A stretch of DNA of 64,000 bases from Candidatus Bathyarchaeia archaeon (GCA_030019335.1 JASEET010000005.1:25962-89961); one strand, 5' to 3'; counted from the stretch's first letter, positions 1 through 54,730 are shown. The notes: generated by a model from the letters alone, not told the origin. Numbers and translations are program-made.

Positions 1-820
1 CCGTTTCAACCTTATTTATTATTACAACGTTTGCCAACCGCAGATTAGCCTCACCAGGATGATAAGCAACCTCATGTCCGGCTCTGTGGGGGTCAGCTAC
101 AACAATGTGTAGGTCTGGCTTGTAGAAAGGTAGGTCGTTGTTGCCTCCATCCCAGACGATAACGTCCGCCTCTTTCTCCGCTTCTCTCAGAATTTTTTCG
201 TAGTCAACCCCTGCATAAACGATTATACCGTTGTCTATGTGTGGCTCGTATTCTTCTCTTTCCTCAATCGTGCACTCATGTTTATCCAAGTCTTCGTGTG
301 AAGCGAAACGCTGGCAAATCTGCTCTTTTAGGTCTCCGTAGGGCATCGGATGCCTAATAACAACAACCCTCAAACCTTTGCTTTTCAAGATTTTCGCAAC
401 TTGCCGTGAAGTTTGGCTTTTCCCTGAACCAGTTCTTACGGCACACACAGAAACAACTGGAACCTTTGCCTTTAGCATCGTTGTTTTCGGACCCATTAAG
501 CGGAAGTCTGCACCATTTGCCAATGCTACAGACGCTTTATGCATAACGTATTCATGTGAAACATCGCTGTAGGCAAAGATAACCTGGTCAACATCATGTT
601 TCCTTATCAGCTTTGGCAGTTTCCCTTCCGGATAGATTGGTATGCCCTTCGGATAGTGTGGACCTGCAAGCTCTGGGGGGTAGCTTCTTTCTTCTATGCC
701 GGGAATCTGCGTGGCTGTGAATGCCACAACTTCATAAGCATCATTGTTTCTAAAGTAGACATTGAAGTTGTGGAAGTCCCTACCAGCCGCACCCATTATA
801 ATAACTTTGATTCTCTTCAT
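1..820 (-). CDS. COG2403-type P-loop NTPase (family often annotated as cyclic 2,3-diphosphoglycerate synthetase/GTPase); N-terminal ~273 codons, 3' end outside window
   Basis: Own minus-strand translation from ATG 820-818: MKRIKVIIMGAAGRDFHNFNVYFRNNDAYEVVAFTATQIPGIEERSYPPELAGPHYPKG...VCAVRTGSGKSQTSRQV. It is open to position 1 and absent from the track because no stop lies in the window. Confidence 0.6.
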   Translation of the reverse strand, partial: MKRIKVIIMGAAGRDFHNFNVYFRNNDAYEVVAFTATQIPGIEERSYPPELAGPHYPKGIPIYPEGKLPKLIRKHDVDQVIFAYSDVSHEYVMHKASVALANGADFRLMGPKTTMLKAKVPVVSVCAVRTGSGKSQTSRQVAKILKSKGLRVVVIRHPMPYGDLKEQICQRFASHEDLDKHECTIEEREEYEPHIDNGIIVYAGVDYEKILREAEKEADVIVWDGGNNDLPFYKPDLHIVVADPHRAGHEVAYHPGEANLRLANVVIINKVET

Positions 821-900
821 ATCGCGATTCCTCGCCAAAACCCCGAGCAAGGGGATTCAATACTACCTAAATCATTCCATATAAACCTTAACGTGGCAAC

Positions 901-2004
901 TTACCCTAAGAGACGTAAAACTGTTTCACCTATGAAGTCTATCTGCCTTGCGGTAACACCTGGATGGGCTGGCAACGAAAGAACCTGTTTTGCGGCTTTC
1001 TCTGTTTCCGGAAGCCTATATCTTCCAAATTTTCTATAATATGGCATTACATGTATAGGATTTACATAGTAGACTTCTGTGCCTATACCCTTTTGTCTCA
1101 GTGCTTCAATAATTTTGTCTCTTTTCTTTCCTTTTGCACCCTTTAACCTAATGGTGTAAAGATGCCAACTGTGTTTGTAGCCTTTGTGTTCTTTTGGCAG
1201 CAGCAAACCCTTTGCTTTTTTAAGTTTCACTGTTAGTCTTTCGGCGTTTTCACGTCTTTTTGCTAAGAATTTTGGTAGTTTCTTTAATTGTACGCAGCCT
1301 ATCGCTGCTTGTATTTCTGGCATGTGATAGTTGTGCCCGAGCATGAGTGATTTGTACTTCTCTTTTTCTCCGTGGCTTCTCATGAACCGCATCTTTTCGG
1401 CAAGTTTATCATTGTTTGTTGTTACCATGCCACCTTCGCCCGTTGTCATGTTTTTGCTTGCATAGAAACTCCAGCATGCAGCATCTGCAAAGGCTCCTGG
1501 CGGTTTTCCCTTGTAACTTGCACCGTGGGCTTGAGCTGCATCTTCAATAATCGTTAGTCCATGCTTGTCAGCGATTTCTCTTATTGGTTGCATGTCAGCT
1601 GGCAAACCATACAAGTCCACGGGCATTATACCCTTTGTCTTTTTTGTTACGGCTTTTTCAATTCTTCTTGGAGAAATATTGTATGTTTCAGGGTCTACGT
1701 CCACGAAGACTGGTTTGGCTCCAGCCATCGCAACCACTTCGGCTGTTGCAACGAACGTAAAGCTTGGCAGAATCACTTCATCCCCTCGTTTAATTCCAGC
1801 TCCCACAATTGCTAAATGTAAAGCGGCTGTTCCCGTGTTTACCGCTATTGCATGTTTTGCTTTAACAAATTTTGCGAAGGCTTTTTCGAACTTCATAACC
1901 ACGGGACCCGCGCCAAGTCCATGCGTTAGTGTGCCGCTTTTCAAAACTTTGACAACAGCTACGATTTCCTCTTCCCCAATTTGAGGGGCGTTGATTGGAA
2001 TCAT
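901..2004 (-). CDS. DegT/DnrJ/EryC1/StrS-family PLP-dependent sugar aminotransferase
   Basis: 367-aa ORF with family-typical N-terminus (PINAPQIGEEE), AIAVNTGTAALHLA and the PLP-lysine context SFYASKNMTTGEGGMV. Confidence 0.9.
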   Translation of the reverse strand: MIPINAPQIGEEEIVAVVKVLKSGTLTHGLGAGPVVMKFEKAFAKFVKAKHAIAVNTGTAALHLAIVGAGIKRGDEVILPSFTFVATAEVVAMAGAKPVFVDVDPETYNISPRRIEKAVTKKTKGIMPVDLYGLPADMQPIREIADKHGLTIIEDAAQAHGASYKGKPPGAFADAACWSFYASKNMTTGEGGMVTTNNDKLAEKMRFMRSHGEKEKYKSLMLGHNYHMPEIQAAIGCVQLKKLPKFLAKRRENAERLTVKLKKAKGLLLPKEHKGYKHSWHLYTIRLKGAKGKKRDKIIEALRQKGIGTEVYYVNPIHVMPYYRKFGRYRLPETEKAAKQVLSLPAHPGVTARQIDFIGETVLRLLG

Positions 2005-2085
2005 GCCATCGCCATCTAGTTAGTATGCTACTCCCATGTTAATAACTTGTGCGTTTAATTTGATGTCGAATAAAAAACCGGGACG

Positions 2086-2739
2086 TTAAAAAGATGAAAG
2101 GTCATCATTCAAATTTTTAACTCTGCTTAAGAATTCCTCCAATTCCTTTTCAACTTCTTCCTTTCTTTTTGTTAGAAACCCCAATTCCTCTAATATTTCC
2201 TCCAGCCACTCTTTAATGGCTAGGTTGCACTTTTCCTTAGTCATTCTGGCAAGATATTTTGAAACATCTTGTGGACCACGCTTTTTCAATAAGTGTAGTG
2301 GATAATTGATTTGCTGAAATTTTGAGAATGGGAAGAAATGTCTAGTTGACCGCGGTTTCATTAGGTGTCCGCTAAGTCCCGCCGAGATAACCTTTTCAAC
2401 GGCAATTTCTCCATTTGGATCGCTTATATATCGATGGATTCTCCTTCTTCCAACTCGAATTTTTGGATTCTGGAAGGCATCAACAAGTATAACTGGCATC
2501 AGTGTATAACCAAGGCTTTTTAACACAAGCCAACGGTGCATTCCATCAAAGATAACGTGCGTTTTTTCATCCGCAATTATTGGGTATTTCAGCACGCCAT
2601 CTCTAAGGATTTCCCGTCTAAGCAGTTCCAGATAAAGTGGAGAGCCTTTTTCATGGGGTTTCAGCTCGTCAATCGGCAACAAAAGTATTTTTAAATCTGA
2701 TTTTTCAGCTAAAATAGTGGATGTCACTTGTTCTTTCAC
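2086..2739 (-). CDS. ParB/sulfiredoxin-fold domain protein; candidate ADP-dependent serine kinase (SerK-like)
   Basis: 217 aa. LLLPIDELKPHE...FDGMHRWLVL matches the ParB/Srx core. It lies 36 nt downstream of TrpB2 on the same strand. Confidence 0.55.
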   Translation of the reverse strand: MKEQVTSTILAEKSDLKILLLPIDELKPHEKGSPLYLELLRREILRDGVLKYPIIADEKTHVIFDGMHRWLVLKSLGYTLMPVILVDAFQNPKIRVGRRRIHRYISDPNGEIAVEKVISAGLSGHLMKPRSTRHFFPFSKFQQINYPLHLLKKRGPQDVSKYLARMTKEKCNLAIKEWLEEILEELGFLTKRKEEVEKELEEFLSRVKNLNDDLSSF

Positions 2740-2775
2740 CTTTTAATGGCTGAAAGTTGGAACTTTTTTTCTAGT

Positions 2776-4155
2776 TCACCATTCCAGCCATGGATAAAGT
2801 TCCTTCAGCCTTCTCATGGATTCATCTACTTTTTCTTTAGGATACTCATATGGTGGTAGCTTGCCGCTGTTGTAGTCGTCATAAGCTTGCATGTCAAAGT
2901 GGCCGTGTCCGCACAGCAAGAACAGAATGGTTTTCTCCTCACCAGTTTCCTTGCACTTGAGAGCTTCGTCAATGACGGCCTTGATGGCGTGGGCGGGCTC
3001 GGGGGCTGGCAGTATGCCCTCTGTTCTGGTGAATAGAGTTGCCGCCTCGAACGCTTCGATTTGGTTGTAAGCCTTGCTTTTTACGATTCCTTCCGCATTC
3101 AATAAACAGAGAGTTGGAGCCATTCCGTGATAGCGTAGGCCGCCAGCGTGGATGGGCGGGGGTATAAACATGTGGCCAAGCGTATGCATTTTAACCAAAG
3201 GAATCATTCGAGCACTGTCTCCATGGTCGTATGTGTAGTATCCTTTCGTCACTGAGGGAGCCGCGGTGGATTCCACTGCTAGGAAGTCCGTATCTTTAGG
3301 AGCTTTCCCTGAGACTTTATCGTAATAGAAAGGCCACAATAATCCTGAAAAACTGCTTCCTCCCCCTACACACCCTACGAGCAAATCTGGATAATCGTCC
3401 ACAAGTTCCATCTGTTTCTGAGCTTCTTGACCAACGACGGTTTGGTGAAGAAGAACGTGGTTAACAACGCTTCCGAGAGTGTATTTCGCTTCTTCGTGTG
3501 TAACAGCGTCCTCCACGGCTTCACTTATGGATATTCCTAGACTTCCTGAACAGTTAGGATCCTCCTCCAGAATCTTCTTCCCAAATTTTGTTCTCTCGCT
3601 TGGGCTTGGAAAAACTTCAGCTCCCCAAGTTTCCATCATGACTCTCCTATAGGGCTTTTGGTGGTAGCTTGCTCTGACCATGTAAATGGTTGATTTCATT
3701 TCAAACAACATGCAACCAAAGGACAGCGCTGAACCCCATTGACCTGCCCCAGTTTCTGTTGTAAGCCTTTGCGTGCCTTCCTTCATGTTGTAGTAAGCTT
3801 GAGCAACAGCGGTGTTCGGCTTATGGCTTCCCGGAGGGCTTACTCCTTCGTATTTGTAGTAGATTTTGGCGGGCGTCTTTAGGGCCTTCTCAAGACTGAC
3901 TGCTCGGTAGAGGGGTGTTGGCCTCCATAATCGGTAAACCTCGCGCACTTCTTCCGGTATACTTATCCAACGTTCTTTACTAGTCTCCTGCTTTACGAGT
4001 TCCTTGGCAAATACAGCCTCTAGAGCCTGAGGGGGTACAGGCTCCCTTGTCTTTGGATTTATCATGGGAGGGAGCGGTTTCGGAAGATCTGGGAGAATGC
4101 AGTACCATTGTTTAGGTATTTCTTCCTCGTCTAATATTATTTTTCTAGATGCCAT
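2776..4155 (-). CDS. trpB: TrpB2-type tryptophan synthase beta-like PLP enzyme
   Basis: Long TrpB-related ORF with the N-terminal extension ([16 protein letters not shown]), [11 protein letters not shown]-lysine motif and GGGSSFSG loop. I prefer ATG 4155 (GGAGAG 6 nt upstream) over the track start at 4206. Confidence 0.85.
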
Positions 4156-4965: not shown

Positions 4966-6264
4966 CTAGTGACTTGCTGGACTACTCCTCATAAAAGAGG
5001 ACACCTTCATGGCTACTGCCGAGGCACTTATTAGTGTCTCATAAACGTGCATGGGCTGTTGCACTGCTCCAGCGAGAAATATGCCATCTCTTGTTGTTTC
5101 ATTTGGCGCTAGTTGAGGATGTTTTTCCAGAAAGAAGCAGTCTTCGTCGAGTGGAAGTTGGAGTTTTTCTTTGAGGTTGACTTGAGGCTTTAGTCCAGTT
5201 TCTAAAACAATAAGGTCAGCTGTTATTGAGAGCAGTTTAGATGTGGCTAGGTCATAAACGTCCAAAGTTAGGAAGCCATTTGGTGTTTGGCGTACTTCGG
5301 ATGGTTGCCCATGGATAAATTCAACTCCGCCGGCTCTGACTTTCTGATACAACTGTTCGCCCTGTTTTGTAACGGCCCTTATGTCTGTGTAGCAAATGTA
5401 GGCGTCAACTTCCTCTCCATACTGCTGTTTCAAGTAGTAGGTATGTTTGAGAGCGTTTAAGCATCCGATATTGCAGCAATAGCGAAGGTGCTTTTCATCT
5501 CGCGAGCCAGTGCACAAAATAAACACAACGCTTTTCGGTCTTTCTTTGCTGTCGATTCTCAGGATTTTTCCGCCAGTTGGACCTGTTAGGCTACACAATC
5601 GCTCATACTCCATCCCAGTAATCACATTCGGATAAACACCGTACTTATACTGTCCCACTTTTTGAGCGTCATATTGACAAAATCCTGTTGCCAAGACAAT
5701 AGCACCTACAGATAGTTCTTCACGCAACGGTTTTTGGTCATACAGCACTGCTCCTTCTGGGCAAGCGTCCTGGCACGCACGGCAGGATTCGTCTTTAAAG
5801 TAGAGACAAGCCTCTTTGTCAACTAGATATCTGGCTGGAACTGCAAAGGGTTTAGGCAGGTATATGGCTTTTCTCGTTGCCAGTCCCATTTCAAACTTTT
5901 TTGTAACATCTACTGGACAAACCTTTTCGCATTCACCGCAGTTGGTGCATTTAGCTTTGTCCACATATCTAGCCCTTTTTGATATATGCACTCTAAAATT
6001 GCCTATGGAGCCGGCAACTGATTCAATTTCAGCATAAGGCAGAACCGTTATGTTAGGGTCATTCAAAACCTTTTGGAGCAGTTGTTTAGTTAGCTCCTCC
6101 GCGTTCTCTAAGGTTGGAAACACTTGATGTAAAAGTGAAGCATGACCTCCGAGGCGAGGTTCCTTCTCAACTAAATAAACGTTTATTCCCATGCTTGCAA
6201 GGTCAATAGCGGTTTGCAGTCCAGCGACTCCTCCACCTACAACAAGCGCAGAATGCTTGTTCAT
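4966..6264 (-). CDS. hdrA: HdrA-like FAD/[4Fe-4S] oxidoreductase (short form)
   Basis: GGGVAGLQTAIDLA dinucleotide fold and CTNCGECEKVCP / CRACQDACP ferredoxin motifs. ATG 6264 has AAGGAG 6 nt upstream (track start 6294). Confidence 0.8.
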   Translation of the reverse strand: MNKHSALVVGGGVAGLQTAIDLASMGINVYLVEKEPRLGGHASLLHQVFPTLENAEELTKQLLQKVLNDPNITVLPYAEIESVAGSIGNFRVHISKRARYVDKAKCTNCGECEKVCPVDVTKKFEMGLATRKAIYLPKPFAVPARYLVDKEACLYFKDESCRACQDACPEGAVLYDQKPLREELSVGAIVLATGFCQYDAQKVGQYKYGVYPNVITGMEYERLCSLTGPTGGKILRIDSKERPKSVVFILCTGSRDEKHLRYCCNIGCLNALKHTYYLKQQYGEEVDAYICYTDIRAVTKQGEQLYQKVRAGGVEFIHGQPSEVRQTPNGFLTLDVYDLATSKLLSITADLIVLETGLKPQVNLKEKLQLPLDEDCFFLEKHPQLAPNETTRDGIFLAGAVQQPMHVYETLISASAVAMKVSSFMRSSPASH

Positions 6265-6352
6265 GTTTATCTCCTTGTATAAGATTGAGAACATTAGGTT
6301 AGAGATTGGCTTTTAAAAAGATTTGTGATTATGCAATTGAAGTTCGAAAACA

Positions 6353-6904
6353 ATGCTTATAAAGGCAAGAGCCGCTATCCCTTATTCCATGTCCATCATA
6401 GACCTTACAACCACAAAAAAGCCTGATTTGGCTCTCCGCCTCAAACTCTTAGCTAAGATTGGCGAGCATAAGCCTTACAATTGTTTTCAATGTATTAGAT
6501 GTACAAGCGGTTGCCCATCGATGAAAATGTTGGAGCTGAAACCGCATGAAATCGTAAGTTTAGCTAGTCTCGGTTTTATTGAGGAATTAATCGCTTCAGG
6601 CACGGTCTGGGCTTGCGCAACCTGTCTAAAGTGTAAGGAAAGATGCCCCCAAGCCGTGGCTCCAGTCGACCTCATATTTGCGTTAAGAAACTTGGCTGTT
6701 GAAAAAGAAGCCAAGGTTCCCGAAAGTTTTCTGCGTTCATTAAGCGCTATACTTGAAACTGGTTTTGTTCAAAAACCGCAAGACACCGTGACACGCAAAA
6801 TGGAAAAAGTGAACAGAGAGAAGCTGGACTTACCAAAGTTCCACGAGCCTGATGAGAAGTTCAAGGCCGCTTTTTTCAAGGTGTTAGAACTCTTTCAGGA
6901 GTAG
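6353..6904 (+). CDS. hdrC: HdrC-like 2x[4Fe-4S] subunit
   Basis: CFQCIRCTSGCP and CATCLKCKERCP motifs; directly precedes the HdrB-like gene. Confidence 0.8.
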   Translation: MLIKARAAIPYSMSIIDLTTTKKPDLALRLKLLAKIGEHKPYNCFQCIRCTSGCPSMKMLELKPHEIVSLASLGFIEELIASGTVWACATCLKCKERCPQAVAPVDLIFALRNLAVEKEAKVPESFLRSLSAILETGFVQKPQDTVTRKMEKVNREKLDLPKFHEPDEKFKAAFFKVLELFQE

Positions 6905-6910
6905 TGGAAG

Positions 6911-7807
6911 TTGAAAGTTGCAGTTTACTGGGGCTGTCTCATTCCAACGGTCCAGTATGGCTATGAAATGTCGGTTAGAGCGGTTATGCCTCAGCTCGGT
7001 TTAGAGCTTGTGGAATTAAACAATGTCTCTTGCTGTGGAACACCCATCAAAAGCGTGAATATGTTTGCAGCGCTTTATCTGGCGGTGAGAAACCTAGCCA
7101 TAGCTGAAAAAACGGGCTTAGACGATTTGCTTCTTCCATGCAATGGCTGTTACTTGTCGCTTTCTGAAGCCAAACACCTTCTCAGTCAAGACGGTAAACT
7201 AAAAGAAAGGATTAACAACATACTTAAAGAAGAAAACCTTCAATATGAAGGCTCGATTAAGATTTGGCACACCATCAACTTGCTTCACGACCTTGCCGGA
7301 GAAGAAAGAATGAGAGAGGTGGTTAAGCACCCCCTAAACGGCTTAAAACTCGCGGTTCATTATGGCTGCCACATTTTAAGACCCAGCACATTTCAGCCAA
7401 TTGACGACTCAGAGAACCCGAAAAAAATGGACGAGTTAGTTGAGTGGTTAGGTGCAAAAAGCATCCCTTATCCAGAGAAGTTGGATTGTTGCGGATATAT
7501 GCTTTTGTTGTCACATCCGGACGCTGCATTAACGTTTACTGGGCTAAAGTTGAAGGCAGTTCAAGACTGGGGTGCAGATGCGCTAGTGGTGTCTTGTCCG
7601 TCTTGTCAGATGATGTTTGACATGCGCCAGAAAAGTTCGGGTGCCACAACTGGTGCAAAACTTAATTTGCCAGTGCTTTATTATACGCAGTTGCTTGGCT
7701 TAGCGATGGATATCTCAACCGAGAGGCTTGGACTAAACTTGAATCGAAGCCCTATAGATGAGCTTTTACAAAAAGTGGGTTTAATATCTACTGCGACTTC
7801 TCCATAG
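6911..7807 (+). CDS. hdrB: HdrB-like subunit with two CCG (Cys-rich) domains
   Basis: 298 aa, TTG start. CCG motifs VSCCGTP...CNGC and DCCGY...CPSC. Confidence 0.8.
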   Translation: MKVAVYWGCLIPTVQYGYEMSVRAVMPQLGLELVELNNVSCCGTPIKSVNMFAALYLAVRNLAIAEKTGLDDLLLPCNGCYLSLSEAKHLLSQDGKLKERINNILKEENLQYEGSIKIWHTINLLHDLAGEERMREVVKHPLNGLKLAVHYGCHILRPSTFQPIDDSENPKKMDELVEWLGAKSIPYPEKLDCCGYMLLLSHPDAALTFTGLKLKAVQDWGADALVVSCPSCQMMFDMRQKSSGATTGAKLNLPVLYYTQLLGLAMDISTERLGLNLNRSPIDELLQKVGLISTATSP

Positions 7808-7833
7808 AGTTAACGGCATTTCCTTCTGGCAAA

Positions 7834-7845
7834 CCTTATATATTT
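7834..7845 (+). promoter_or_regulatory. TATA-box-like element upstream of the acyl-CoA dehydrogenase gene
   Basis: CCTTATATATTT about 40 nt upstream of ATG 7884; AGGTGA SD-like element at 7870-7875. Confidence 0.4.
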
Positions 7846-7883
7846 AGTGTCCATGAGACTCTTTTCTCTAAAGGTGAAATATA

Positions 7884-9104
7884 ATGGTAGAGTTTGGCTT
7901 TACTGAACAACAAGAAATGTTTCGAAAGATTTTGCACGAATGGTGCCAGAAAAACCTTACCCTTGAAAAAGTTAGAGAAATGGACACTAAACAATGGATC
8001 CCTGATGAAATCATTACGGGAATGGCTGACCTTGGTTTATGGCTCATGACCATTCCGGAAGAACATGGCGGATTGGGAGCAGATTGGGTTACTGCTTGTA
8101 TAGCTGCCGAAGAATTAGCCTATGCTGATATTACCATAGCAATCCCAGTGCACTTCCTAGTCGAAAGCAGTTGGGGATTTGTTGCTGACAGATACTGCAC
8201 AGAAAGGGTTAGAGAAGAGTGTATACGTCCGGCAATAAAGGGCAAGGCATTCATGGGTATAGCTACAACCGAAGCTGGTGGAGGTTCTGATGTCGCTGCT
8301 TTCAAGACAGTAGCAAGAAAGGAGGGGAACGATTGGATTGTTAATGGAGAAAAGACGTACATTAGTGGTACAGAAGAGTGTGTACATCTTGGCAAGGGTG
8401 GCTTCTGGATAACTGCTAGAACATCAAAAGCACCGCCAGGGGCTGCACATCGAGGCATGACATCCTTCTATCTTCCATTTAAGGCTCCGGGCGTTGAGGT
8501 AAGCAAACGTTTCGATGACATGGGCAGAATGGGTATATCATGTGGGGCTTTCACCATGAAAGACGTTAGACTGCCAAATGATTATCTCATGGGAGAAGAG
8601 GGCAAAGGCTTCTATATGACCATGGAAGGCTTTGACGCTGCAAGGATATTAATTGGAGCTACTTCCATCGGATGTGCGCAACGTGCACTTGAGATTGGAA
8701 TGGAATATATTAAGGAGCGTAAAGCTTTCGGTCGCCCTATTGGAAAATTTGGCATGATCCAATATGAATTGGCAGATGACTACGCAAAGCTAGAAGCCTT
8801 GCGATCGTTGGTCTACAGAACGGCTTGGATGATGGACGAAAGGTATAAGACAAAGCGTTTCACGCCACTCGAAGTAGCAAAGATGATATCAACGGTCAAG
8901 CTGCTGGGTCCGCCTCTTGCATTTAAGATCTTCTATGATACAATGATATGGTTAGGAGCTTGGGGATACACCAAAGAATGCCCACTTGAAATGGGAATGC
9001 GAGGGATAATGTCGTACGTCATTGGAGCTGAGGGTGCCCTTAACATCCAGAGGGTTGTTCTCGTAAGAGAACTTCTTGGAAGCGAATACATCGATTACAA
9101 GTAG
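7884..9104 (+). CDS. acyl-CoA dehydrogenase family protein
   Basis: 406 aa. ATTEAGGGSDVAA, WIVNGEKTYISG and a C-terminal helical domain typical of ACADs. Confidence 0.9.
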   Translation: MVEFGFTEQQEMFRKILHEWCQKNLTLEKVREMDTKQWIPDEIITGMADLGLWLMTIPEEHGGLGADWVTACIAAEELAYADITIAIPVHFLVESSWGFVADRYCTERVREECIRPAIKGKAFMGIATTEAGGGSDVAAFKTVARKEGNDWIVNGEKTYISGTEECVHLGKGGFWITARTSKAPPGAAHRGMTSFYLPFKAPGVEVSKRFDDMGRMGISCGAFTMKDVRLPNDYLMGEEGKGFYMTMEGFDAARILIGATSIGCAQRALEIGMEYIKERKAFGRPIGKFGMIQYELADDYAKLEALRSLVYRTAWMMDERYKTKRFTPLEVAKMISTVKLLGPPLAFKIFYDTMIWLGAWGYTKECPLEMGMRGIMSYVIGAEGALNIQRVVLVRELLGSEYIDYK

Positions 9105-9237
9105 CTTCTAGGGGACAAACCCTCTCTTTTTTCCATTCACATAAAATATTGATTGTTAAATGGAAAACACTCTTCCACACGGTTCCACGAAACGAAAAGA
9201 ACGTTCAAAATGTGTTAGCTTTAGCTAATTTTTGGCT

Positions 9238-9423
9238 TTTTCAAGGCCGCTAACAAAGCAGGCACTATCTCATAGAGGCGGGTGCGCGCATAGAGAGTGT
9301 CAACTGGAGATGGGTTTGAGAGGAGTCATATCTTACTGCATCGGAGCCGAAGGAGCTACAAACATCCAGAGGGTAATCATAGCCAGAGAACTGCTTGGCA
9401 AAGAATACATGGCTCACAAATAA
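9238..9423 (+). pseudogene. relic of the C-terminal ~45 codons of a second acyl-CoA dehydrogenase paralog
   Basis: ECQLEMGLRGVISYCIGAEGATNIQRVIIARELLGKEYMAHK aligns with the C-terminus of the 7884-9104 product (ECPLEMGMRGIMSYVIGAEGALNIQRVVLVRELLGSEYIDYK). No upstream ACAD body is present. Confidence 0.75.
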
Positions 9424-9452
9424 AACCCTCTTTTTCTTTTCATTCCTTTGCC
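9424..9452 (+). terminator. oligo-T tract (archaeal-type terminator candidate); similar tract after the intact ACAD at 9118-9135
   Basis: AAACCCTCTTTTTCTTTTCATTCC follows the relic stop. The near-identical AAACCCTCTCTTTTTTCCATTC follows the 9104 stop. Confidence 0.35.
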
Positions 9453-9462
9453 TTTTTAGAAA

Positions 9463-10440
9463 TCAACTGGAAGCTAGTAGTTTTCTTAAAGCTTCTGATA
9501 GAGCTGGGACTATTTCGTATAAGTCGCCAATGACAATGTAATCGGCCATCTCCATTATTGGTGCTTCTGGGTCTCTATTGATAGCCGCTATTATCTTAGA
9601 GTCGCGTATTCCAGCCACATGCTGGATTACCCCGGAAATCCCGCATGCAATGTAAAGCTTTGGCTTGATAGTGTGCCCTGACAATCCTACCCATTCTGTG
9701 AACCATTTTCTATCTTCAACTAATGGTCGGGTGTATCCGACTTGTCCACCCAGTATCTGGGCTAGTTCATCGAGAATTTTGAAGTCTTCTTTCTTTTCGA
9801 GTCCCCTTCCGCCTCCAATAACCACTTCCGCCTCTTCGATTCTGGTCTCGGCTATTTCTATTGGTTTAACTTTAACAATTTCGGTTTTTGCCACTTCAAG
9901 TTGTACATCGCTTATGTCAACAACTTCGCCTTTGCTTTCTTCTGTATATTTGAGTTTTTCGAATCTTCTGCGAGGTATAGTAACTATTTGCGGCTTAGTA
10001 CGGAAAACTTGGGTTACTATGGCGTTTCCACCGTAGACGATTCGTTCTGCGAGCAGTCTGCCTTGTTCATCAACTTTTAACTCCAAGCAGTCTGAGACGC
10101 ATCCAGCATTAAGCCGAGCGGCAAGTCGGGCGGCAAGTTCTTTTCCTCTTTTGGTAGAACCCATCAGAAACAGTTCAGGCTTGTGCTGTTTAGTTAATTG
10201 GGTTAAAGCACTTAGATAAGGTTCAACGTGAAATACCTTTAGTTGCGGGTTGTCTACTACGATGACTTTGTGAGCGCCATAACCGATTAGCTCTTTTACT
10301 TGTTTTTTAATATCATGTCCCAACATAACTGCTGTTAGTTGCGTCTGCAGTTTGCCTGCTAATCTGCTTCCTTTGCCAAGTAATTCAAGCATCAAGTCCT
10401 TATTTTCTGAGTATGCCCAGACTCCACGATGTTCGCTCAA
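9463..10440 (-). CDS. etfA: electron transfer flavoprotein alpha subunit
   Basis: 325 aa. The C-terminal FAD-binding block PKLYIACGISGVIQHVAGI...IAAINRDPEAPI is typical of EtfA. Confidence 0.9.
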   Translation of the reverse strand: MSEHRGVWAYSENKDLMLELLGKGSRLAGKLQTQLTAVMLGHDIKKQVKELIGYGAHKVIVVDNPQLKVFHVEPYLSALTQLTKQHKPELFLMGSTKRGKELAARLAARLNAGCVSDCLELKVDEQGRLLAERIVYGGNAIVTQVFRTKPQIVTIPRRRFEKLKYTEESKGEVVDISDVQLEVAKTEIVKVKPIEIAETRIEEAEVVIGGGRGLEKKEDFKILDELAQILGGQVGYTRPLVEDRKWFTEWVGLSGHTIKPKLYIACGISGVIQHVAGIRDSKIIAAINRDPEAPIMEMADYIVIGDLYEIVPALSEALRKLLASS

Positions 10441-10446
10441 CCGTTT

Positions 10447-11241
10447 TCACCTCACTATAATCCCTTCTTGAATCAGTGTTTTCGCTAACTTCTCTGCAAT
10501 CTCCATGGCAGTTTCTCCCTTTATGACAATTTTTTTACGTTCCACCTTAGGTGCAAGAACATCTAGCACCTGAACCGCTGAGCCCGCTTCACCCACTTTT
10601 TCGCTTGGAATGTTAAGGTCTGCAGCTTTCCATATCACAATTTCTTTCTTGAATGCCTTCATGATTGCCATGTATGAGGGAGTACGAGGTTCATTGATTT
10701 CCTTCGTCACGGTTACTAAAACCGGCATTTTTGCTCTCACAGTCTCAGAGCAGTCTTCTAAACCTCGCTCAGCAGTAACAGTGTCTCCTTCGAGACTAAG
10801 TTTTCTTGCATAGGTTATCAATGGAATGCCCAATCGCTCGGCTAAGCGCGGTCCAATCTGCGCCGAGAAACTGTCAATTGAGGCTTCGCCGCATAAAATG
10901 ATGTCGAAAGCGCCTATCTTTTTAATCGCTTCAGCAAGAACATAGGAGGTTGCCAATGTGTCAGAGTTTTCAAAGATTGAATCATTTATTAGGTAAGCCT
11001 TGTCAGCGCCCATTGCTAGGGCTTCCCTTAATGTTGTTTTGGCATCTTCTGGACCAGTAGTCACCGTGAGGACTTCGCCTCCGAGCTTCTCTTTGATGCG
11101 TATGGCTTCTTCTAGGGCATTTTTGTCGAAGTCACTTATCTTTTTGGGCGCATCCGCAATGATTAAACGTCTCGTAGCTGAGTCAACCTTTAGCTGAGAG
11201 ACATCTATGGCTTGTTTTACACAAACTAGGATTCTAACCAT
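10447..11241 (-). CDS. etfB: electron transfer flavoprotein beta subunit
   Basis: 264 aa. ILVCVKQAIDV..., DFDKNALEEAIRIKE and GADKAYLI...DTLATSYVLA match EtfB. Confidence 0.9.
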   Translation of the reverse strand: MVRILVCVKQAIDVSQLKVDSATRRLIIADAPKKISDFDKNALEEAIRIKEKLGGEVLTVTTGPEDAKTTLREALAMGADKAYLINDSIFENSDTLATSYVLAEAIKKIGAFDIILCGEASIDSFSAQIGPRLAERLGIPLITYARKLSLEGDTVTAERGLEDCSETVRAKMPVLVTVTKEINEPRTPSYMAIMKAFKKEIVIWKAADLNIPSEKVGEAGSAVQVLDVLAPKVERKKIVIKGETAMEIAEKLAKTLIQEGIIVR

Positions 11242-15246: not shown

Positions 15247-16587
15247 TTATTCTCTCCGAATTATTTTTCCGCTTCCTGCCTTAGCTACGATTTCTTCTTC
15301 ATCCATGATTAATTGACCGTTAACGAATGTTTTAACTGGTTTTCCTTCAACTGTCCATCCGTCAAACGGGGAGTATTTCGCTTTTGAGTGGAATTTTGTT
15401 GCGTCAATTCTGTATTTTTTATCTAAATCTACAACCACTAAATCTGCGTTATTTCCCTCTTTCAAATAGCCTCTACCTTTCAACCTGAAGATTTCAGCAG
15501 GGTTTTCTGAAATTAACCTAACTACATCAGCTATTGATAATCGTCCACGTTTCACCTCTGTGAGCAATAGTGGAAGAGTTGTTTCTAAGCTTGGTATGCC
15601 AACCTTGACATCCCAAACAAGCTTTGCTTTCTTCTCTCCTAAAGTGTGTGGCGCATGGTCTGAAGCCAAGATGTCAATCCAACCATTTTTGACTCCGTTC
15701 CAGAGGGCTATTGTATGGTGTTTTTCTCGAACAGGCGGCATGGTCAATGCCAGTGTTCCGATTCGCCTTAAATCGTCAGTGGACAAAAATAGATGATGCG
15801 GCGTTGTTTCGCATGTTACTGGTAGTCCTAATTTTTTTCCATCAATTACTGCTTCTAATCCTTTTTCTGTGCTTATGTGACAAAAATGCACCTGTGTGCT
15901 GGTTTGTTTGGCGATGTTTAGCAAGCGTTTCACGGCTTTCACCTCTGCACTTTCTGAATGTGCCTTGAGAAATGCCTCGATATCGTTGCGGTTGGAACGC
16001 TTAAGCTTCCCTTCAGCTCTTTCTAATGTTGCTTTGTCTTCTGCGTGAACAGCGACTGGAACCTTCAATCTGCTAACGGTTTTGAACGCTTCTAACAAGG
16101 CATAATCGTCATTAATGTTTAATCCGCCAACCTGCTCAGCCATAAAAAGCTTAAAAGCCACAGCTCCTTCTCTAACTATTTCCTCAGTTTCCCTCGTGTT
16201 TCTTGGAAATTCGGAGTAAAAGCCGATGTTAACCAAAACTTTCTTTTCAGCGATTTTCATTCGGTTCCTCAAGTTTTCTGCACTCATTGTCACTGGGTCA
16301 TTGTTGGGCATGTCCAAAACTGTTGTCACTCCACCTGCGGCGGCGGAGGCTGTTCCGCTGTAAAAATCTTCTTTGTACGTTTTTCCTTCATCTCGAAGAT
16401 GCACATGAACATCTATTAAACCGGGTAAAACCAAGAGATTTTTTAGGTTGATTTTTGCCTCTGCTTTAGGCATGCTTATTTCTTTGCCTATTTTGAGGAT
16501 TTTTCCTTTGTTTATTGCTAGGCTGCAGTCCACTATTTTGTTATTTATGTAGGCTTTCGTGTTGCTTAGGACTAGGTCAACAATCAA
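15247..16587 (-). CDS. pyrC: dihydroorotase (amidohydrolase superfamily)
   Basis: GLIDVHVHLRDEG, AVHAED and ILASDHAPH metal-ligand motifs. Confidence 0.8.
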   Translation of the reverse strand: MIVDLVLSNTKAYINNKIVDCSLAINKGKILKIGKEISMPKAEAKINLKNLLVLPGLIDVHVHLRDEGKTYKEDFYSGTASAAAGGVTTVLDMPNNDPVTMSAENLRNRMKIAEKKVLVNIGFYSEFPRNTRETEEIVREGAVAFKLFMAEQVGGLNINDDYALLEAFKTVSRLKVPVAVHAEDKATLERAEGKLKRSNRNDIEAFLKAHSESAEVKAVKRLLNIAKQTSTQVHFCHISTEKGLEAVIDGKKLGLPVTCETTPHHLFLSTDDLRRIGTLALTMPPVREKHHTIALWNGVKNGWIDILASDHAPHTLGEKKAKLVWDVKVGIPSLETTLPLLLTEVKRGRLSIADVVRLISENPAEIFRLKGRGYLKEGNNADLVVVDLDKKYRIDATKFHSKAKYSPFDGWTVEGKPVKTFVNGQLIMDEEEIVAKAGSGKIIRRE

Positions 16588-16637
16588 GTTGATCGGCTCT
16601 CTTGTTATTGGAATAAAGTGGAATAGAATGTTAAAGT

Positions 16638-17546
16638 TTATTCTATTATTTTGAAGAAATCTCTTTCCGTTATTATGCCTATGAGTTTTTCGTTTTTGAC
16701 CACTGGTAAAGCGCCTATTTTTTTCTCTTGCATTATTTTTGCTGCTTGACCGACATCTGCGTTTGGCTCAATTGTTGATACCTCTTTTGTTGCTATTTCA
16801 AGTGCATGTGTGTTCAAAACCTGTATTATGGTTCCAGACCGTAGATATTTGAAGACTTCTCCGGAGCCGAAGAACCGTATAATATCCATGGCTGTTATTA
16901 TGCCTACTACTTTGCTATCGGAGATTATTGGCAGTCTTCTGAATCCTTGTGTTGTCATTGTTTTTTCGGCTTCAAAGATTGTTGTTTTGGGTGATGCTGT
17001 GACTACTTTTTTGGACATTAGTTGAGCAACGTTTACGCCGCTTATTCTATCAGCGAACATGTTGGCAATGTCTCTCTCCGTGATTATTGCTCTTACACGG
17101 TTTTCATTGTCAACCACAGGTAAACCGCCGAGGTTTTTTTCTTTCATTAATTTTATTGCTTCGCTTATTTTTGCAGAAGTTTTAACTGAAACAACTTTTT
17201 TGGTTATTACGAGTTTTATGGGCTCGTTTATGGCTTTGAAAATGTTTCCTCCAAATTTTTGTTGAATTATTTGGAATTTTTTTCCGCCGCCTAGGTAATT
17301 GATTATGTCTGTGGCTGTTATGATTCCTTCTAACGTTCTTGTTCCTGGGTTAGCGATTGGAATGCGTCGGAATCCTTCCTTGGTCATTATTTGTATACCA
17401 TCGTAAATGGGTGTTGTTGGAGCCATTGTGACAACGGGGCTTTTTGCAACATGTAATATTTCGCCTTCACGTTTTTTCGGGGGATGAGTTTTTAAAGAGA
17501 GCGGGCCCTTCCCCCTTAACGACCTTCTAAAACTTTCTCTACTCAA
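16638..17546 (-). CDS. CBS-domain protein (four CBS repeats)
   Basis: Repeated ...GFRRIPI / GGLPVVD / GFRRLPI / GALPVV blocks. Confidence 0.85.
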   Translation of the reverse strand: MSRESFRRSLRGKGPLSLKTHPPKKREGEILHVAKSPVVTMAPTTPIYDGIQIMTKEGFRRIPIANPGTRTLEGIITATDIINYLGGGKKFQIIQQKFGGNIFKAINEPIKLVITKKVVSVKTSAKISEAIKLMKEKNLGGLPVVDNENRVRAIITERDIANMFADRISGVNVAQLMSKKVVTASPKTTIFEAEKTMTTQGFRRLPIISDSKVVGIITAMDIIRFFGSGEVFKYLRSGTIIQVLNTHALEIATKEVSTIEPNADVGQAAKIMQEKKIGALPVVKNEKLIGIITERDFFKIIE

Positions 17547-17558
17547 ATTTTTCCCTTC

Positions 17559-18326
17559 TTATTTAACAAGAAGCTTAACAATGTCTTCACGGTCAACTAT
17601 ACCAATTAACCTTCCGTTGCCGTCTTTTATTGGTATTCTTCCAATGTTTTTTGAAATCATTAGTTTGGCGACTTCGCTGATTCTGGTTGACGGTTTTGCG
17701 GCTATAACTGTTGTGTTCATTATTGAAGAAATTTTGGAGGTAGCTCGGAAACGTCCTTTTTGAGATTCGAAGGTAGGCAGCGTTGTTCCGCTTTCCAGAA
17801 GGTCTTTTTGTGTAATAATGCCTACCAGTTTGTCCTTTTTGACTACTGGCAGTCCAGCGAAGGATTGGTTTTGCATTAGACGCCAAACGTTATCAATCTC
17901 ATCATCTGGAGAGCATGCAACAACGTTTTTTGACATGATTTCTGAAACTGGTTTTGAGAGTTTGTTTGGGTTTGCTTTGAGCGAAGTCTCAATGAAGTTT
18001 TCTAAGCCTAAAACTCCCCTGTAGGTTTTGTCTTGAGCCGAGTTTACGATGGGCACGTACCATTCGTCTAGTCGAATCATTTTTTTAACGGTGGAAGCAG
18101 CATCGTCTTCCATTGCTGCTATGTGCTTTGGTGCGGTCATTATGCCCTTAACTTTTATGGGTGAAACAGAAGAGGAAATAGCCATTACGTCGCCGCGTGA
18201 AACTATGCCTAACAGTTTTTTGTTTTCTTTCACTACTGGGAGAATTCTTAAGGCGAAATCCCTTATTATTGCACGGGCTTTTGTGGCGAGTTCATCGTCA
18301 TAAATAAACGGGTGCTTCTTGTCCAT
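17559..18326 (-). CDS. CBS-domain protein (four CBS repeats)
   Basis: CBS blocks are present. The track start 18443 overlaps the upstream gene with an Arg-rich artefactual extension; ATG 18326 (MDKKHPF) is preferred. Confidence 0.8.
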   Translation of the reverse strand: MDKKHPFIYDDELATKARAIIRDFALRILPVVKENKKLLGIVSRGDVMAISSSVSPIKVKGIMTAPKHIAAMEDDAASTVKKMIRLDEWYVPIVNSAQDKTYRGVLGLENFIETSLKANPNKLSKPVSEIMSKNVVACSPDDEIDNVWRLMQNQSFAGLPVVKKDKLVGIITQKDLLESGTTLPTFESQKGRFRATSKISSIMNTTVIAAKPSTRISEVAKLMISKNIGRIPIKDGNGRLIGIVDREDIVKLLVK

Positions 18327-18355
18327 AATTTCTTTAACACGCAAACAACCGCCTC

Positions 18356-18943
18356 TCACTCTGCGCTTTCTAATTCGATTCTGCAGTCTTCGCAGAGAAA
18401 ATCTCCGTTGGTTTCTTTTAAGGTGTCTGACCAAGCACCGCAACGGTCGCAGTATCCGGCGAGGGGTGTGGATTCCTCTGTTGTTGCTTCTTGGGCTCTG
18501 TTTTCTCCTTCTATGAGTGCCTGTTCTTGGATGATTTCTATGAGTTCGGGCATGACTCCTAAGATGTCTTTGCTTGAGAGTACTCCGATTAGTTGTCCCT
18601 TGTATATGACTCCTAATCTTCTAATGTTTAGTCTGCTCATTCTTCTGGCGGCTTCGCTTATCTTTTCATCGGGCTCTATTGTGATTAGAGGTGTGGTCAT
18701 AACTTCTTTAGCTTTTAGAGAGTCGGGTTTGACATTTTTAGCTAAAACCCTTCTAACTAAATCCCTTTCCGTGATTATTCCAAGTGGTTTTCCCTCTTTG
18801 CTTGTCACTATTATGCAGCCCAAACCATGTTTATCCATGAGTTCTGCAACTTGATTTGCTGGTGCGTCTTCATCTATTGTTATTACTGGGCTGCTCATAA
18901 CATCTTTAGCCAGCATTCGAGACCTTAACCCAATGTCTGACAT
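18356..18943 (-). CDS. CBS-pair protein with C-terminal CxxC...CxxC zinc ribbon
   Basis: Two CBS repeats followed by AGYCDRCGAWSD...FLCEDCRIE. ATG 18943 (MSDIG) is preceded by an A/T-rich TATA-like tract. Confidence 0.8.
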   Translation of the reverse strand: MSDIGLRSRMLAKDVMSSPVITIDEDAPANQVAELMDKHGLGCIIVTSKEGKPLGIITERDLVRRVLAKNVKPDSLKAKEVMTTPLITIEPDEKISEAARRMSRLNIRRLGVIYKGQLIGVLSSKDILGVMPELIEIIQEQALIEGENRAQEATTEESTPLAGYCDRCGAWSDTLKETNGDFLCEDCRIELESAE

Positions 18944-19118
18944 TGTTCTCAACCACTTAAATGATGTATACTTTGTTAAGCTTGCTTCACTCAACTCAAA
19001 ATAAACATCCCACATTTAAAACTTGTTATGTTTCGCGCAGATACAATAGTTGCTGGCTGGGTGAAGTTTTATTAGCATCTGCTGGCTAATGCACCTAGTC
19101 TAATACGGGGAAAATAAT

Positions 19119-20009
19119 ATGTTAAAAACAAATGTTGATAAATTGGTAAAAATCTCGGTTGTCGGCGAGGTAGCCAGCCCAGTTTTCGGAAGAGCAATCT
19201 ATAGGATTTCAGCTCAAGGCACTCCACTTGTTTTGCCAGGAGTCGGAGGAATCACGTACAATGTGAGGGTAGGCGACTTGGCGTGTGGATGGGAAGCAGA
19301 CCATGTTGAACCGGGCGTAAGCATAGAAAACAAAGAAAGCGACCCCCGTTTTGCACAGGCTGCAAACGCAGCCTTGAATGTGCTTTCATGTGTTGGAAAT
19401 GAGGCAGTGGTGGTTATGGGTGATGCGAAAGGTGCAAAGGGAGTTGTGACTGGAAAACATGGTGGAATAGAGCATGTGTTGGTGGATTTTCAGCTTGAAA
19501 CCCTTGAGAAACTCATGCCTGGCGACAAAGTGCTTGTGAAAGCCTTCGGCGTGGGCTTGAAACTTTTGGATTATCCCGATATAAAGGTGATGAATATGGA
19601 CCCGCGCTTTCTTGAGGCTTTAGGTCCGAAACCAAGTGGTGACAAATTGGAGGTTCCGGTTACACATGTAATTCCGGCGATGATAATGGGTTCAGGTTTG
19701 GGAGCTAACCACACATATTCTGGGGATTATGACATCCAGCTTTTTGATGAAAATGTTAGGAAGCAGTATGGGCTTGATGATTTGAGGCTCGGTGACTTGG
19801 TAGCCATAAGAGACGCGGATCATTCTTATGGTAGAATATACAAGCAGGGTGCTATATCAGTTGGTATTGTTGTGCATACGAATTGTGTGTCGTCTGGTCA
19901 TGGACCTGGGGTTACAACTTTGTTTACGTCTTCTACTGGTAAGATAGTTCCGAAAGTTGATGCAAAGGCTAATATTGCTTCCATTTTTAGGTTGAGGACA
20001 GATATATAA
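19119..20009 (+). CDS. conserved hypothetical protein (resembles the DUF4438 family from memory)
   Basis: 296-aa ORF with good coding character; no catalytic motif recognised. Confidence 0.45.
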   Translation: MLKTNVDKLVKISVVGEVASPVFGRAIYRISAQGTPLVLPGVGGITYNVRVGDLACGWEADHVEPGVSIENKESDPRFAQAANAALNVLSCVGNEAVVVMGDAKGAKGVVTGKHGGIEHVLVDFQLETLEKLMPGDKVLVKAFGVGLKLLDYPDIKVMNMDPRFLEALGPKPSGDKLEVPVTHVIPAMIMGSGLGANHTYSGDYDIQLFDENVRKQYGLDDLRLGDLVAIRDADHSYGRIYKQGAISVGIVVHTNCVSSGHGPGVTTLFTSSTGKIVPKVDAKANIASIFRLRTDI

Positions 20010-53719: not shown

Positions 53720-53746
53720 TTATTACATCTCCTTTTTCGTTTAGAC

Positions 53747-54730
53747 CTATGCTTTTTGTCCTTTCAACTCATATATTTTACCTTTCAACGCGGGCACAAC
53801 CTTGAATAAATCGTCAACAATGCCGTAGTCGGCGAAGCTGAAGATGGGCGCGTTTGGGTCTTTGTTTACGGCTATGATTAAGTCTGAGTTTTTCATTCCT
53901 AGAACATGCTGAAAGGCTCCGCTTATTCCAAGAGCAATGTAAACTTTTGGCTTTACGGTTTTTCCAGAAGTGCCCACTTGACGGTCGCTTGGAAGCCATC
54001 CCTTATCCACGATTGGACGTGAGCAAGCAAGCACTCCACCAAATGCCTTTGCCAACTCTTCAACCATTGGCATATTGTTCTCGTCCTTTATTCCGCGTCC
54101 AATGCCAATGAGCACATCTGCGGCTGTTATGTCAACTCCTCCTGGAGGCGGCAAAACATATTCGATGAAACGTTTCTCGGTTATCTCTTCGGAAAGCGGA
54201 GAGGGCGTTTCTATGATTTCTCCGTTCATGGTTGGTTTTTGAGCTGCGAAGGTTGCTTGGCGGACAGTAACAATGTAACTTTTAGACTTTCGAACTTTTG
54301 CCCTAACGTTCACTTTGCCACCGTACATTTGCCGCGTTACAATAAGTGCTTCGTTTTCAAACTCTAAGTCTATGCAGTCCGTTGCAAGCGGCAGATTCAG
54401 ATCAACTGCAAGGCTTGGAGCTAAATCCACACCAAAAGATGTGTGCCCTATCATGGTTAGCAACGGCTTATGCTCTTTGATTAGATTTGATAACACTTTC
54501 TGGTACGCTTCGGAGTTAAAGTTCTCCAATTTCGCATCTTCAATTAGCAGAACCTTTTTCGCGTATTCTGAAAGGGTTTTGGCATGTTTCTTAACGTCTT
54601 TGCCCAACAGAACCGCTGTCAAATCCATGTTTGTTTTTTCGGCTAGTTCTTTGCCCTTTGTCAGCATTTCGAAGGCTATGTCTCTGATTTGTCCCTGCCT
54701 ATGCTCAGCCAGAACAAAGATTTCCTTCAT
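53747..54730 (-). CDS. etfA: electron transfer flavoprotein alpha subunit
   Basis: PKVYIALGISGAFQHVLGM...IAVNKDPNAPIF. Confidence 0.9.
   Translation of the reverse strand: MKEIFVLAEHRQGQIRDIAFEMLTKGKELAEKTNMDLTAVLLGKDVKKHAKTLSEYAKKVLLIEDAKLENFNSEAYQKVLSNLIKEHKPLLTMIGHTSFGVDLAPSLAVDLNLPLATDCIDLEFENEALIVTRQMYGGKVNVRAKVRKSKSYIVTVRQATFAAQKPTMNGEIIETPSPLSEEITEKRFIEYVLPPPGGVDITAADVLIGIGRGIKDENNMPMVEELAKAFGGVLACSRPIVDKGWLPSDRQVGTSGKTVKPKVYIALGISGAFQHVLGMKNSDLIIAVNKDPNAPIFSFADYGIVDDLFKVVPALKGKIYELKGQKA

Follow-up and report, generated by a model that had tools for sequence, protein, structure and literature searches.

Genuine HdrABC genes, which encode the subunits of heterodisulfide reductase (Hdr), are common in nonmethanogenic archaea and bacteria without CoM-S-S-CoB, and the substrate of Hdr in these organisms is a long-standing question. 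In the class II benzoyl-CoA reductase of Geobacter metallireducens, the HdrBC-like BamD takes the high-potential electron from the HdrA-like BamE and delivers it to a soluble electron transfer flavoprotein (ETF), which is bound beside the noncubane clusters of BamD in cells and is reduced by BamD in vitro; the ETF can pass electrons to butyryl-CoA dehydrogenase, with crotonyl-CoA reduction in vitro (bioRxiv 10.64898/2026.04.10.717634). The same study names a flavin-adjacent Lys as a hallmark of Hdr-type bifurcating flavins. An iron-sulfur protein with CCG domains is also the ETF partner in EtfD/EMO, the membrane-bound ETF:(methyl)menaquinone oxidoreductases (PMC13083937). Here we describe a cluster of six genes, a short hdrA, hdrC, hdrB, an acyl-CoA dehydrogenase (ACAD) gene, etfA and etfB, at positions 4966-11241 of a 64,000-nucleotide stretch of DNA (the window; JASEET010000005.1:25962-89961) from a Candidatus Bathyarchaeia archaeon (GCA_030019335.1; 1.64 Mb in 73 contigs, completeness score 100%). 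This module gives a testable answer to what Hdr reduces outside the methanogens.

On the basis of comparative sequence analysis of the module as a whole, we propose with moderate confidence that the six genes encode a single soluble electron-transfer unit conserved in Bathyarchaeia, in which a quinone-free path would run from the dehydrogenase (ACAD1) through ETF and HdrB/HdrC to HdrA and ferredoxin. A physical complex, contact between ETF and HdrB, the direction of electron flow and bifurcation are what we infer from this comparison. Bathyarchaeia are among the most abundant archaea in sediments, and the acyl-CoA/enoyl-CoA step is thermodynamically awkward. If the proposed wiring is true, Bathyarchaeia would handle this step in the cytoplasm by bifurcation or confurcation, which would bear on their amino-acid and fatty-acid fermentation and on its energy yield.

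The gene cluster and its known relatives

The six open reading frames (ORFs) lie exactly where a preliminary description of this DNA had placed them, and comparisons with Pfam, NCBIfam and the Protein Data Bank (PDB) agree with the identities it had assigned. The features of the cluster are as follows.

4966-6294, minus strand: short hdrA, 442 amino acids (aa), with matches to the HdrA2 profile and 5ODC_A
6295-6352: divergent spacer between hdrA and hdrC, 58 bp, A/T-rich, containing TTTTAAAAAGATTTGTG
6353-6904, plus strand: hdrC, with two CxxCxxCxxxCP motifs and matches to Fer4_8, Fer4_17 and TIGR03290
6911-7807, plus strand: hdrB, with two CCG domains, ten Cys and matches to CCG and TIGR03288
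7836-7846 and 7873-7877, plus strand: TATA-like TTATATATTTA and GGTGA, respectively, read from the sequence 5' of the ACAD1 start
7884-9104, plus strand: ACAD1 gene (acd), with three ACAD Pfam domains, the core gene of the module
9110-9135: terminator-like stem plus T-run, 3' of ACAD1
9292-9423, plus strand: remnant from the 3' end of an older ACAD1 allele, 43 codons plus stop, with a T-rich tail
9463-10440, minus strand: etfA (large subunit), with matches to the ETF and ETF_alpha domains
10447-11241, minus strand: etfB (small subunit), 6 nt upstream of etfA

The intergenic distances are 6 nt between hdrC and hdrB, 76 nt between hdrB and acd, and 6 nt between etfB and etfA, and the short hdrA ORF is bounded by trpY and hdrC. 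From the lengths of orthologues, hdrA more likely starts at Met11 (~6264), which would give 432 aa, and hdrC more likely at Met13 (~6389); if these inner starts apply, the hdrA-hdrC spacer is about 124 bp. The spacer is a probable shared promoter region; its TTAGAAAAGATTTGTG core is shared by L074 and L089, the closest relatives, and L075 has TTAGAAAAGAGTTGTG in its place. A search of the six proteins for hydrophobic stretches of transmembrane grade found none. The ratio of nonsynonymous to synonymous substitution rates (dN/dS) was 0.06-0.14 across all six genes in comparisons with L089, L075 and L074 and reached 0.22, for EtfA1, in the comparison with L084, with the dS of ACAD1 being saturated against L089 and L084. 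All six genes are under purifying selection.

The Hdr part of the module resembles the MvhADG-HdrABC and HdrABC complexes of methanogens (5ODC, 8RVU and 7BKB). HdrB scored 200-213 bits against five solved methanogen HdrBs (213 bits for 8RVU_b) and keeps all ten Cys of the two noncubane sites; it matched CCG with 91.7 bits and TIGR03288 with 255 bits, under the cutoff of 345. HdrC is likewise a two-cluster protein, and it matched TIGR03290 with 87 bits, under the cutoff of 160. The HdrA core scored 264-350 bits against methanogen HdrA structures, with 350 bits for residues 145-561 of the Methanothermococcus HdrA (5ODC_A), and its match to the HdrA2 profile (777 positions in all) spans positions 135-561, with 435 bits. 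The short HdrA contains a thioredoxin-reductase-like FAD domain, in which the GxGxxG motif is GGGVAG (residues 20-25), and an inserted ferredoxin domain with two [4Fe-4S] motifs, CTNCGECEKVCP and C-x8-CRACQDACP. Its four-Cys site beside the FAD, which we take to be cluster HA4 by comparison with 5ODC and the class II benzoyl-CoA reductase, reads C-x12-CC-x3-C and is shifted relative to the C-x13-C-x3-CC of 5ODC_A; this genome's other two HdrAs also have the C-x12 spacing. The Lys column next to flavin N5 is invariant in the HdrA alignment, the short HdrA included.

The module differs from the methanogen complexes in that the cluster is without hydrogenase, formate dehydrogenase and MvhD genes, that its HdrA has YCCRxGC in place of YCSxxCC, and that, with profile coverage limited to 135-561 of 777 positions, no N-terminal cluster domain, C-terminal 2x[4Fe-4S] ferredoxin domain or MvhD was found in the short HdrA. 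As for a supply of CoM-S-S-CoB, neither the alpha subunit of methyl-coenzyme M reductase (MCR) nor ComA was found in the genome, while other routes to CoM and the synthesis of CoB were not searched. The earlier remark that no methanogenesis genes were visible in the window thus extends, for MCR alpha, to the whole genome.

As in Bcd-EtfAB and CarCDE (5OL2 and 6FAH), a dehydrogenase is combined here with an ETF, which is of the same broad lineage as theirs, and CarC and CarE are among the best PDB matches for ACAD1 and EtfA1, respectively. ACAD1 is a divergent member of its family, with its best PDB matches to 1UKW (177 bits) and CarC (6FAH_C; 169 bits). Its catalytic Glu383, in GAEG, falls at the position of Glu376 of medium-chain acyl-CoA dehydrogenase, is aligned with the YEG of ACAD2 (the dehydrogenase of a second module in the window, described below), and is invariant in 13 sequences. 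EtfB1 scored 152-191 bits against five solved bifurcating EtfBs (4KPU, 6FAH, 5OL2, 7QH2 and 7KOE) and 62-107 bits against nonbifurcating ones. EtfA1 scored 232 bits against residues 66-394 of CarE, 191-211 bits against other bifurcating EtfAs and 134 bits against human ETF, and the motif for the electron-transferring FAD (ET-FAD) is present. The partner-recognition loop of EtfB1 is retained as NEPRTPSYMAIMKA (NEPR...), and in the EtfB tree the EtfB1 family and the bifurcating 4KPU, 6FAH and 5OL2 are sister groups, with support of 98/99 for the joint clade. Unlike Bcd-EtfAB and CarCDE, the module adds an Hdr-type part, no N-terminal ferredoxin domain was found in EtfA1, and the second-flavin motif of EtfB1 is altered. 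The assignment of EtfAB1 to the bifurcating ETFs, which the preliminary description had proposed to settle by classification, therefore holds by affiliation in bit scores and tree and fails by motif.

Like BamDEF with its ETF (BamOP), the module would be cytoplasmic and brings together an HdrA-type flavoprotein, a noncubane CCG protein and a soluble ETF; the HdrB-ETF contact is proposed here by analogy with it. However, the module is without the tungsten-containing BamBC, BamGHI and BamF, its HdrB and HdrC are separate and methanogen-like whereas BamD is fused, and its HdrA is single (and short in this genome) rather than a fused double HdrA. In addition, an ACAD gene lies in the hdr operon of the module, and its ETF is of the bifurcating-type lineage while BamOP is an ordinary high-potential ETF. 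With EtfD/EMO the module would share, again by analogy, a CCG iron-sulfur protein as the redox partner of ETF in fatty-acyl-CoA metabolism, but it has no hydrophobic segments, its true HdrB and its HdrC take the place of an HdrD-type fusion, and it adds the HdrA flavoprotein. The likeness to EtfABCX/FixABCX (7KOE) lies in the combination of ETF with an extra FAD flavoprotein and [4Fe-4S] clusters, and in two metagenome-assembled genomes (MAGs) the short hdrA stands beside etfBA; the differences are the lack of an ETF-QO-family FixC, of a detected FixX domain and of quinone.

These comparisons suggest that the module is an Hdr-type bifurcating module with exchangeable partners, a kind already known, and that its particular combination of parts is what is new. 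No description of an hdrACB-acd-etfBA cluster was found in full-text literature searches, which is not proof that none exists. Public records label the short HdrA just as "heterodisulfide reductase subunit A" or "FAD-dependent oxidoreductase."

Conservation of the module and the lineage of its HdrA

We analyzed co-occurrence in 61 relatives of the same order, in which orthologues of ACAD1, EtfB1 and HdrB1 were found in 32, 24 and 15 genomes, respectively. All 15 genomes with HdrB1 also had EtfB1, and 14 of them had ACAD1, the exception being a 3.7-kb contig that ends inside hdrB. The Fisher p value for HdrB1 with EtfB1 was 2e-8, and co-occurrence p values overall ranged from 2e-8 to 2e-4, calculated without regard to shared ancestry. 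The occurrence is hierarchical: the Hdr genes were never found without this ETF, while ACAD1 can occur without it. In genomes where the parts are scattered (G031, G051, G003, G017 and G034), all three parts, Hdr, ACAD and ETF, are still present.

Gene order was compared in 80 species-level loci from public genomes. The hdrC-hdrB pair lay directly upstream of ACAD1 in 44 of the 80 loci; among these, 32 have a co-directional hdrA of at least ~660 aa and 8 have a short divergent hdrA. The etfBA pair was found within the fetched flank in 41 of the 80 loci, nearly always convergent on ACAD1. The nested occurrence and the shared gene order show the co-conservation in related MAGs that the preliminary description had looked to as a check on its reading. 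The layout that it gave, with the short hdrA divergent from hdrC-hdrB-acd and etfB-etfA converging on the same block, is true of this genome, but most relatives have a full-length hdrA that runs in the same direction as the other hdr genes, usually ~660 aa with both the N-terminal and the C-terminal domains.

In a tree of HdrA cores, all ACAD-linked HdrAs fall in a single clade with a branch support (SH-aLRT) of 98, which does not include the methanogen HdrAs, the remaining two HdrAs encoded in this genome or other short HdrAs known from the relatives. A phylogeny of this kind was among the checks first suggested for the locus, and it revealed an HdrA lineage dedicated to the ACAD-linked context. 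The clade has a private cluster motif, YCCR[VI]GC instead of YCSxxCC, and keeps the flavin-adjacent Lys. Within it the short HdrAs form a subclade (SH-aLRT of 100) that has the long forms as its sister group and is set apart by a long stem (0.67), and judged from this tree the short HdrA of our genome is a derived form inside the ACAD-linked clade.

The short form itself belongs to a large family, since at least 120 clusters of metagenome proteins have lengths of 425-455 aa and an identity of 59% or higher. Its dN/dS of 0.07-0.11 is like that of the other five genes. A decaying fragment was ruled out by this low ratio (~0.1) together with the large family of equal length, and the HdrA tree ruled out that it is an unrelated paralogue, as other short HdrAs in the relatives are. 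No conserved extra gene that could supply the missing HdrA domains was found beside the short hdrA, and the neighbors differ at every locus.

A third HdrA architecture of 1050-1129 aa was found in five loci (L096:5167-8553, L085:4786-8169, L108, L110 and L160), all in hdrA-hdrC-hdrB(-acd) operons. In these proteins an in-frame Fer4_20 plus Pyr_redox_2 (NfnB/GltD-like) module sits inside the ferredoxin insert. The 1.3-kb gap that this module produces in the hdrA of some relatives was considered as a split gene or an intein, and both were ruled out by the in-frame domain. The NfnB/GltD-like insert in the five loci suggests that the ACAD-linked HdrA lineage has NAD(P)H among its partners. The three natural architectures, canonical, NfnB-inserted and minimal, provide a series for dissecting which HdrA domains are needed in bifurcation.

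The ACAD1 orthologue group is sharply bounded, at 53-91% identity within the group and ~32% to other ACADs, and the relatives in which it was found are nearly all labeled Candidatus Bathyarchaeia or Bathyarchaeota. The remnant at 9292-9423 bears on the history of the gene. It is 88% identical to the C terminus of the ACAD1 of L084, the genome with the closest hdr and etf genes (80-89% identity), and 67% identical to the adjacent intact ACAD1, while the intact ACAD1 is 89-91% identical to those of L073-L076 and 72% identical to those of L084 and L089. The ACAD was therefore exchanged in situ, with the slot kept filled, and by these identities the intact ACAD1 is a gene brought in from another Bathyarchaeia lineage. 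Upstream of ACAD1 in L073 (1-266) and L076 (9674-9930), hdrB is reduced to its final 60-80 codons and the hdr genes are lost; these two genomes have the closest ACAD1 genes, and one of them is a closed chromosome of 1.3 Mb (CP070828.1). Taken from such loci, the module is one often gained, remodeled and lost within the class.

Two loci carry Asgard labels, L131:376-6580 (Odinarchaeota) and L137:8453-14660 (Baldrarchaeota). In both, the short hdrA, etfB and etfA are co-directional, hdrC-hdrB is divergent from them, and acd on the opposite strand converges on them. The presence of the module there suggests either lateral transfer from or to Bathyarchaeia or issues of binning or labeling. The L137 contig also encodes, at 16184-19639 on the minus strand, a family-B DNA polymerase with a LAGLIDADG domain that is probably an intein. 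The stretch between ACAD1 and etfA takes unrelated inserts in L097:8832-11580, L141:11288-13911 and L117:3933-9119; by eye these are methylase/restriction-like genes and secreted repeat proteins, and the slot from trpY to the ThrC-like gene is an insertion hot spot. No pathway genes were found between acd and etfA in the relatives, where restriction-modification genes, genes for secreted proteins and the like occur instead.

Proposed electron path and its alternatives

The enoyl-CoA/acyl-CoA couple has a potential of about -10 mV. In the proposed path, ACAD1 would act on this couple and exchange electrons with the ET-FAD of EtfAB1, which in turn would exchange electrons with the two noncubane [4Fe-4S] clusters of HdrB, as in the BamD-ETF pair. 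The two HdrC clusters would wire HdrB to the cluster next to the HdrA FAD, and the inserted ferredoxin domain would link this FAD to ferredoxin. The net result would be a quinone-free link between the acyl-CoA/enoyl-CoA couple and low-potential ferredoxin, which would also take in NAD(P)H where HdrA has the NfnB insert. In the reductive direction (bifurcation), enoyl-CoA would take over from the heterodisulfide as high-potential acceptor and so pay for the reduction of ferredoxin; in the oxidative direction (confurcation), acyl-CoA electrons would be raised to a mid-potential carrier with reduced ferredoxin as the driving donor.

The mid-potential partner would be explicit only in the NfnB-insert forms, as NAD(P)H. 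For the short form the third partner is left as a set of candidates, since this HdrA is without the N-terminal cluster and C-terminal ferredoxin domains: the second nucleotide site of EtfB, direct hydride transfer to the HdrA FAD, or none, which would make the module a linear chain. Likewise, because the short HdrA is without the two domains that methanogen HdrA uses, we infer rather than observe bifurcation in this genome.

The suggestion in the preliminary description that acyl-CoA electrons are not passed to a quinone is supported by the lack of transmembrane-grade stretches in the six proteins and by the search for ETF:quinone oxidoreductase (ETF-QO): the ETF-QO/FixX domain (PF05187) had no match in this genome (G000), while the control genomes of Caulobacter, Thermotoga and Sulfolobus matched. 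An ETF-QO encoded elsewhere in the genome, which would have spoken for the classical route, was thus not detected. Contig C22 of the genome (63075-78210) carries an Hbd-Crt pair and a third ACAD, together with two acyl-CoA ligase-like genes, a beta-eliminating lyase gene and indolepyruvate:ferredoxin oxidoreductase-like genes, the ligases, lyase and oxidoreductase genes being named by eye. The genome thus has acyl-CoA chemistry, and no outlet from ETF to quinone was found in it. The C22 cluster would give the module a context of amino-acid and acyl-CoA fermentation.

Several observations weigh against a single unit of this kind. ACAD1 stands alone in 25 of the 80 species-level loci, and G006 and G026 contain ACAD1 but no EtfB homologue at E <= 1e-30; the ACAD is thus independent of Hdr and of this ETF. 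The in-place replacement described above indicates that ACAD1 was exchanged independently of its neighbors, and ACAD1 may be transcribed separately, since TTATATATTTA and GGTGA may be its own promoter and ribosome-binding site, beside read-through from hdrB. (A sigma-70 promoter scan, uninformative for an archaeon, gave 9 sites against 10.7 expected.) The short HdrA is without the N-terminal cluster/Cys-pair domain and the C-terminal ferredoxin domain, which in characterized Hdr-type enzymes (5ODC) provide the low-potential path and electron input. The second-flavin motif of EtfB1, GEASIDSFSAQIGP, differs at six positions from GRQAIDGDTAQVG, the motif taken from three bifurcating EtfB sequences (4KPU, 6FAH and 5OL2), and throughout the EtfB1 family it reads GE[AT]S[IL]D[SG][FY]S[AG][QL]VG and is nowhere canonical; candidate occupants of this second site are FAD, AMP or nothing. 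Finally, HdrB resembles a genuine disulfide reductase, and its substrate may be a thiol/disulfide.

In a wider claim, we tentatively suggest that hdrACB-acd-etfBA represents an undescribed Hdr-type bifurcating/confurcating class in which enoyl-CoA would take the place of a heterodisulfide as the high-potential substrate, with ETF and a dedicated ACAD between it and the noncubane clusters of HdrB. Ferredoxin and NAD(P)H, the latter by way of the NfnB-like insert of some lineages, would be the further partners. If this is true, it would explain why genuine HdrABC is retained in nonmethanogenic Bathyarchaeia and in some Asgard-labeled MAGs.

Alternatively, bifurcation could be centered on ETF, in analogy to EtfABCX/FixABCX. 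NADH would reduce a bifurcating FAD in EtfB1, from which a low-potential electron would go to ferredoxin and a high-potential electron through ET-FAD to HdrA/C/B and a disulfide; the short HdrA would take the place of FixC and FixX, and ACAD1 would merely be another client of the same ETF. The sister relationship of EtfAB1 to the characterized bifurcating ETFs favors this explanation, as do the complete HdrB site of the heterodisulfide-reductase type with its 200-213 bits to methanogen HdrB, the lack of an ETF-QO/FixX quinone reductase, and the fix-operon-like position of the short hdrA directly upstream of etfB-etfA in L131 and L137. On the other hand, the long HdrA forms carry bifurcation hallmarks of their own, neither MCR nor ComA was found in the genome, and no candidate disulfide carrier was found at any examined locus. 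Because the second-flavin motif is canonical nowhere in the EtfB1 family and the hdr operon includes ACAD1 and not a thiol-carrier gene, we rate this explanation below the quinone-free path from ACAD1 to ferredoxin and consider it unlikely.

An equally doubtful explanation is a linear chain without bifurcation, in which ferredoxin, or a hydride donor at the FAD, would reduce the truncated HdrA and electrons would pass through HdrC/HdrB and ETF to ACAD1 and enoyl-CoA. As an enoyl-CoA reductase dependent on ferredoxin or NAD(P)H, the module would then serve as an electron sink with no energy conserved. Such a chain would fit the loss from the short HdrA of the N-terminal cluster and C-terminal ferredoxin domains used in Hdr-type bifurcation, and the long stem branch of its clade (0.67), which suggests a change of function. 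It would also fit the L089 locus (220-3684, minus strand), where genes for both subunits, alpha and beta, of a 2-oxoacid:ferredoxin oxidoreductase (POR_N/PFOR_II and TPP_enzyme_C) come after the short hdrA in the same orientation and may connect it locally with ferredoxin. However, the short HdrA keeps the Lys at flavin N5 that marks Hdr-type bifurcating flavins, the HdrA architecture is complete in the ancestral long form, and about 0.5 V per electron would be wasted.

That the genes are neighbors without a shared function in a variable slot between trpY and the ThrC-like gene, or a module decaying in this genome, is highly improbable: although the slot up to this PALP-family gene takes unrelated inserts in relatives, ACAD1 stands alone in 25 of the 80 loci, an ACAD remnant lies in the spacer and the hdr genes are deleted in L073 and L076, the nested co-occurrence (p of 2e-8 to 2e-4), the scattered genomes that keep all three parts, the HdrA clade dedicated to the ACAD-linked context and the purifying selection on all six genes argue against it.

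The second module and other redox genes

The window contains a second module with the following position.

52565-59405: second module, with ACAD2, EtfA2, EtfB2, an HdrA::MvhD protein and an HdrD-like CCG protein (Pfam)

The theme had been described as duplicated at this position. The second module is real but is not a duplicate: the shared components of the two modules are 32-42% identical, the CCG protein is of the HdrD type, and the ETF is of the nonbifurcating type, since the best match of EtfB2 is 1O94_C, from the nonbifurcating W3A1 ETF, with 197 bits against 112-139 bits for bifurcating ETFs. By these comparisons the two modules are old paralogous systems built from different parts. The module at 4966-11241 is distinguished from the second by its split HdrC and HdrB, its own HdrA clade and the ACAD gene inside its operon.

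In the whole genome there are two CCG proteins, both of them in the window, three HdrA homologues and two ETFs, and the large subunits of two [NiFe]-hydrogenases are encoded outside the window. Downstream of the second module, the region at 59900-64000 carries a thioredoxin-reductase-like gene, a gene for a ferredoxin/MvhD double-domain protein, and NfnA/NfnB-like genes.

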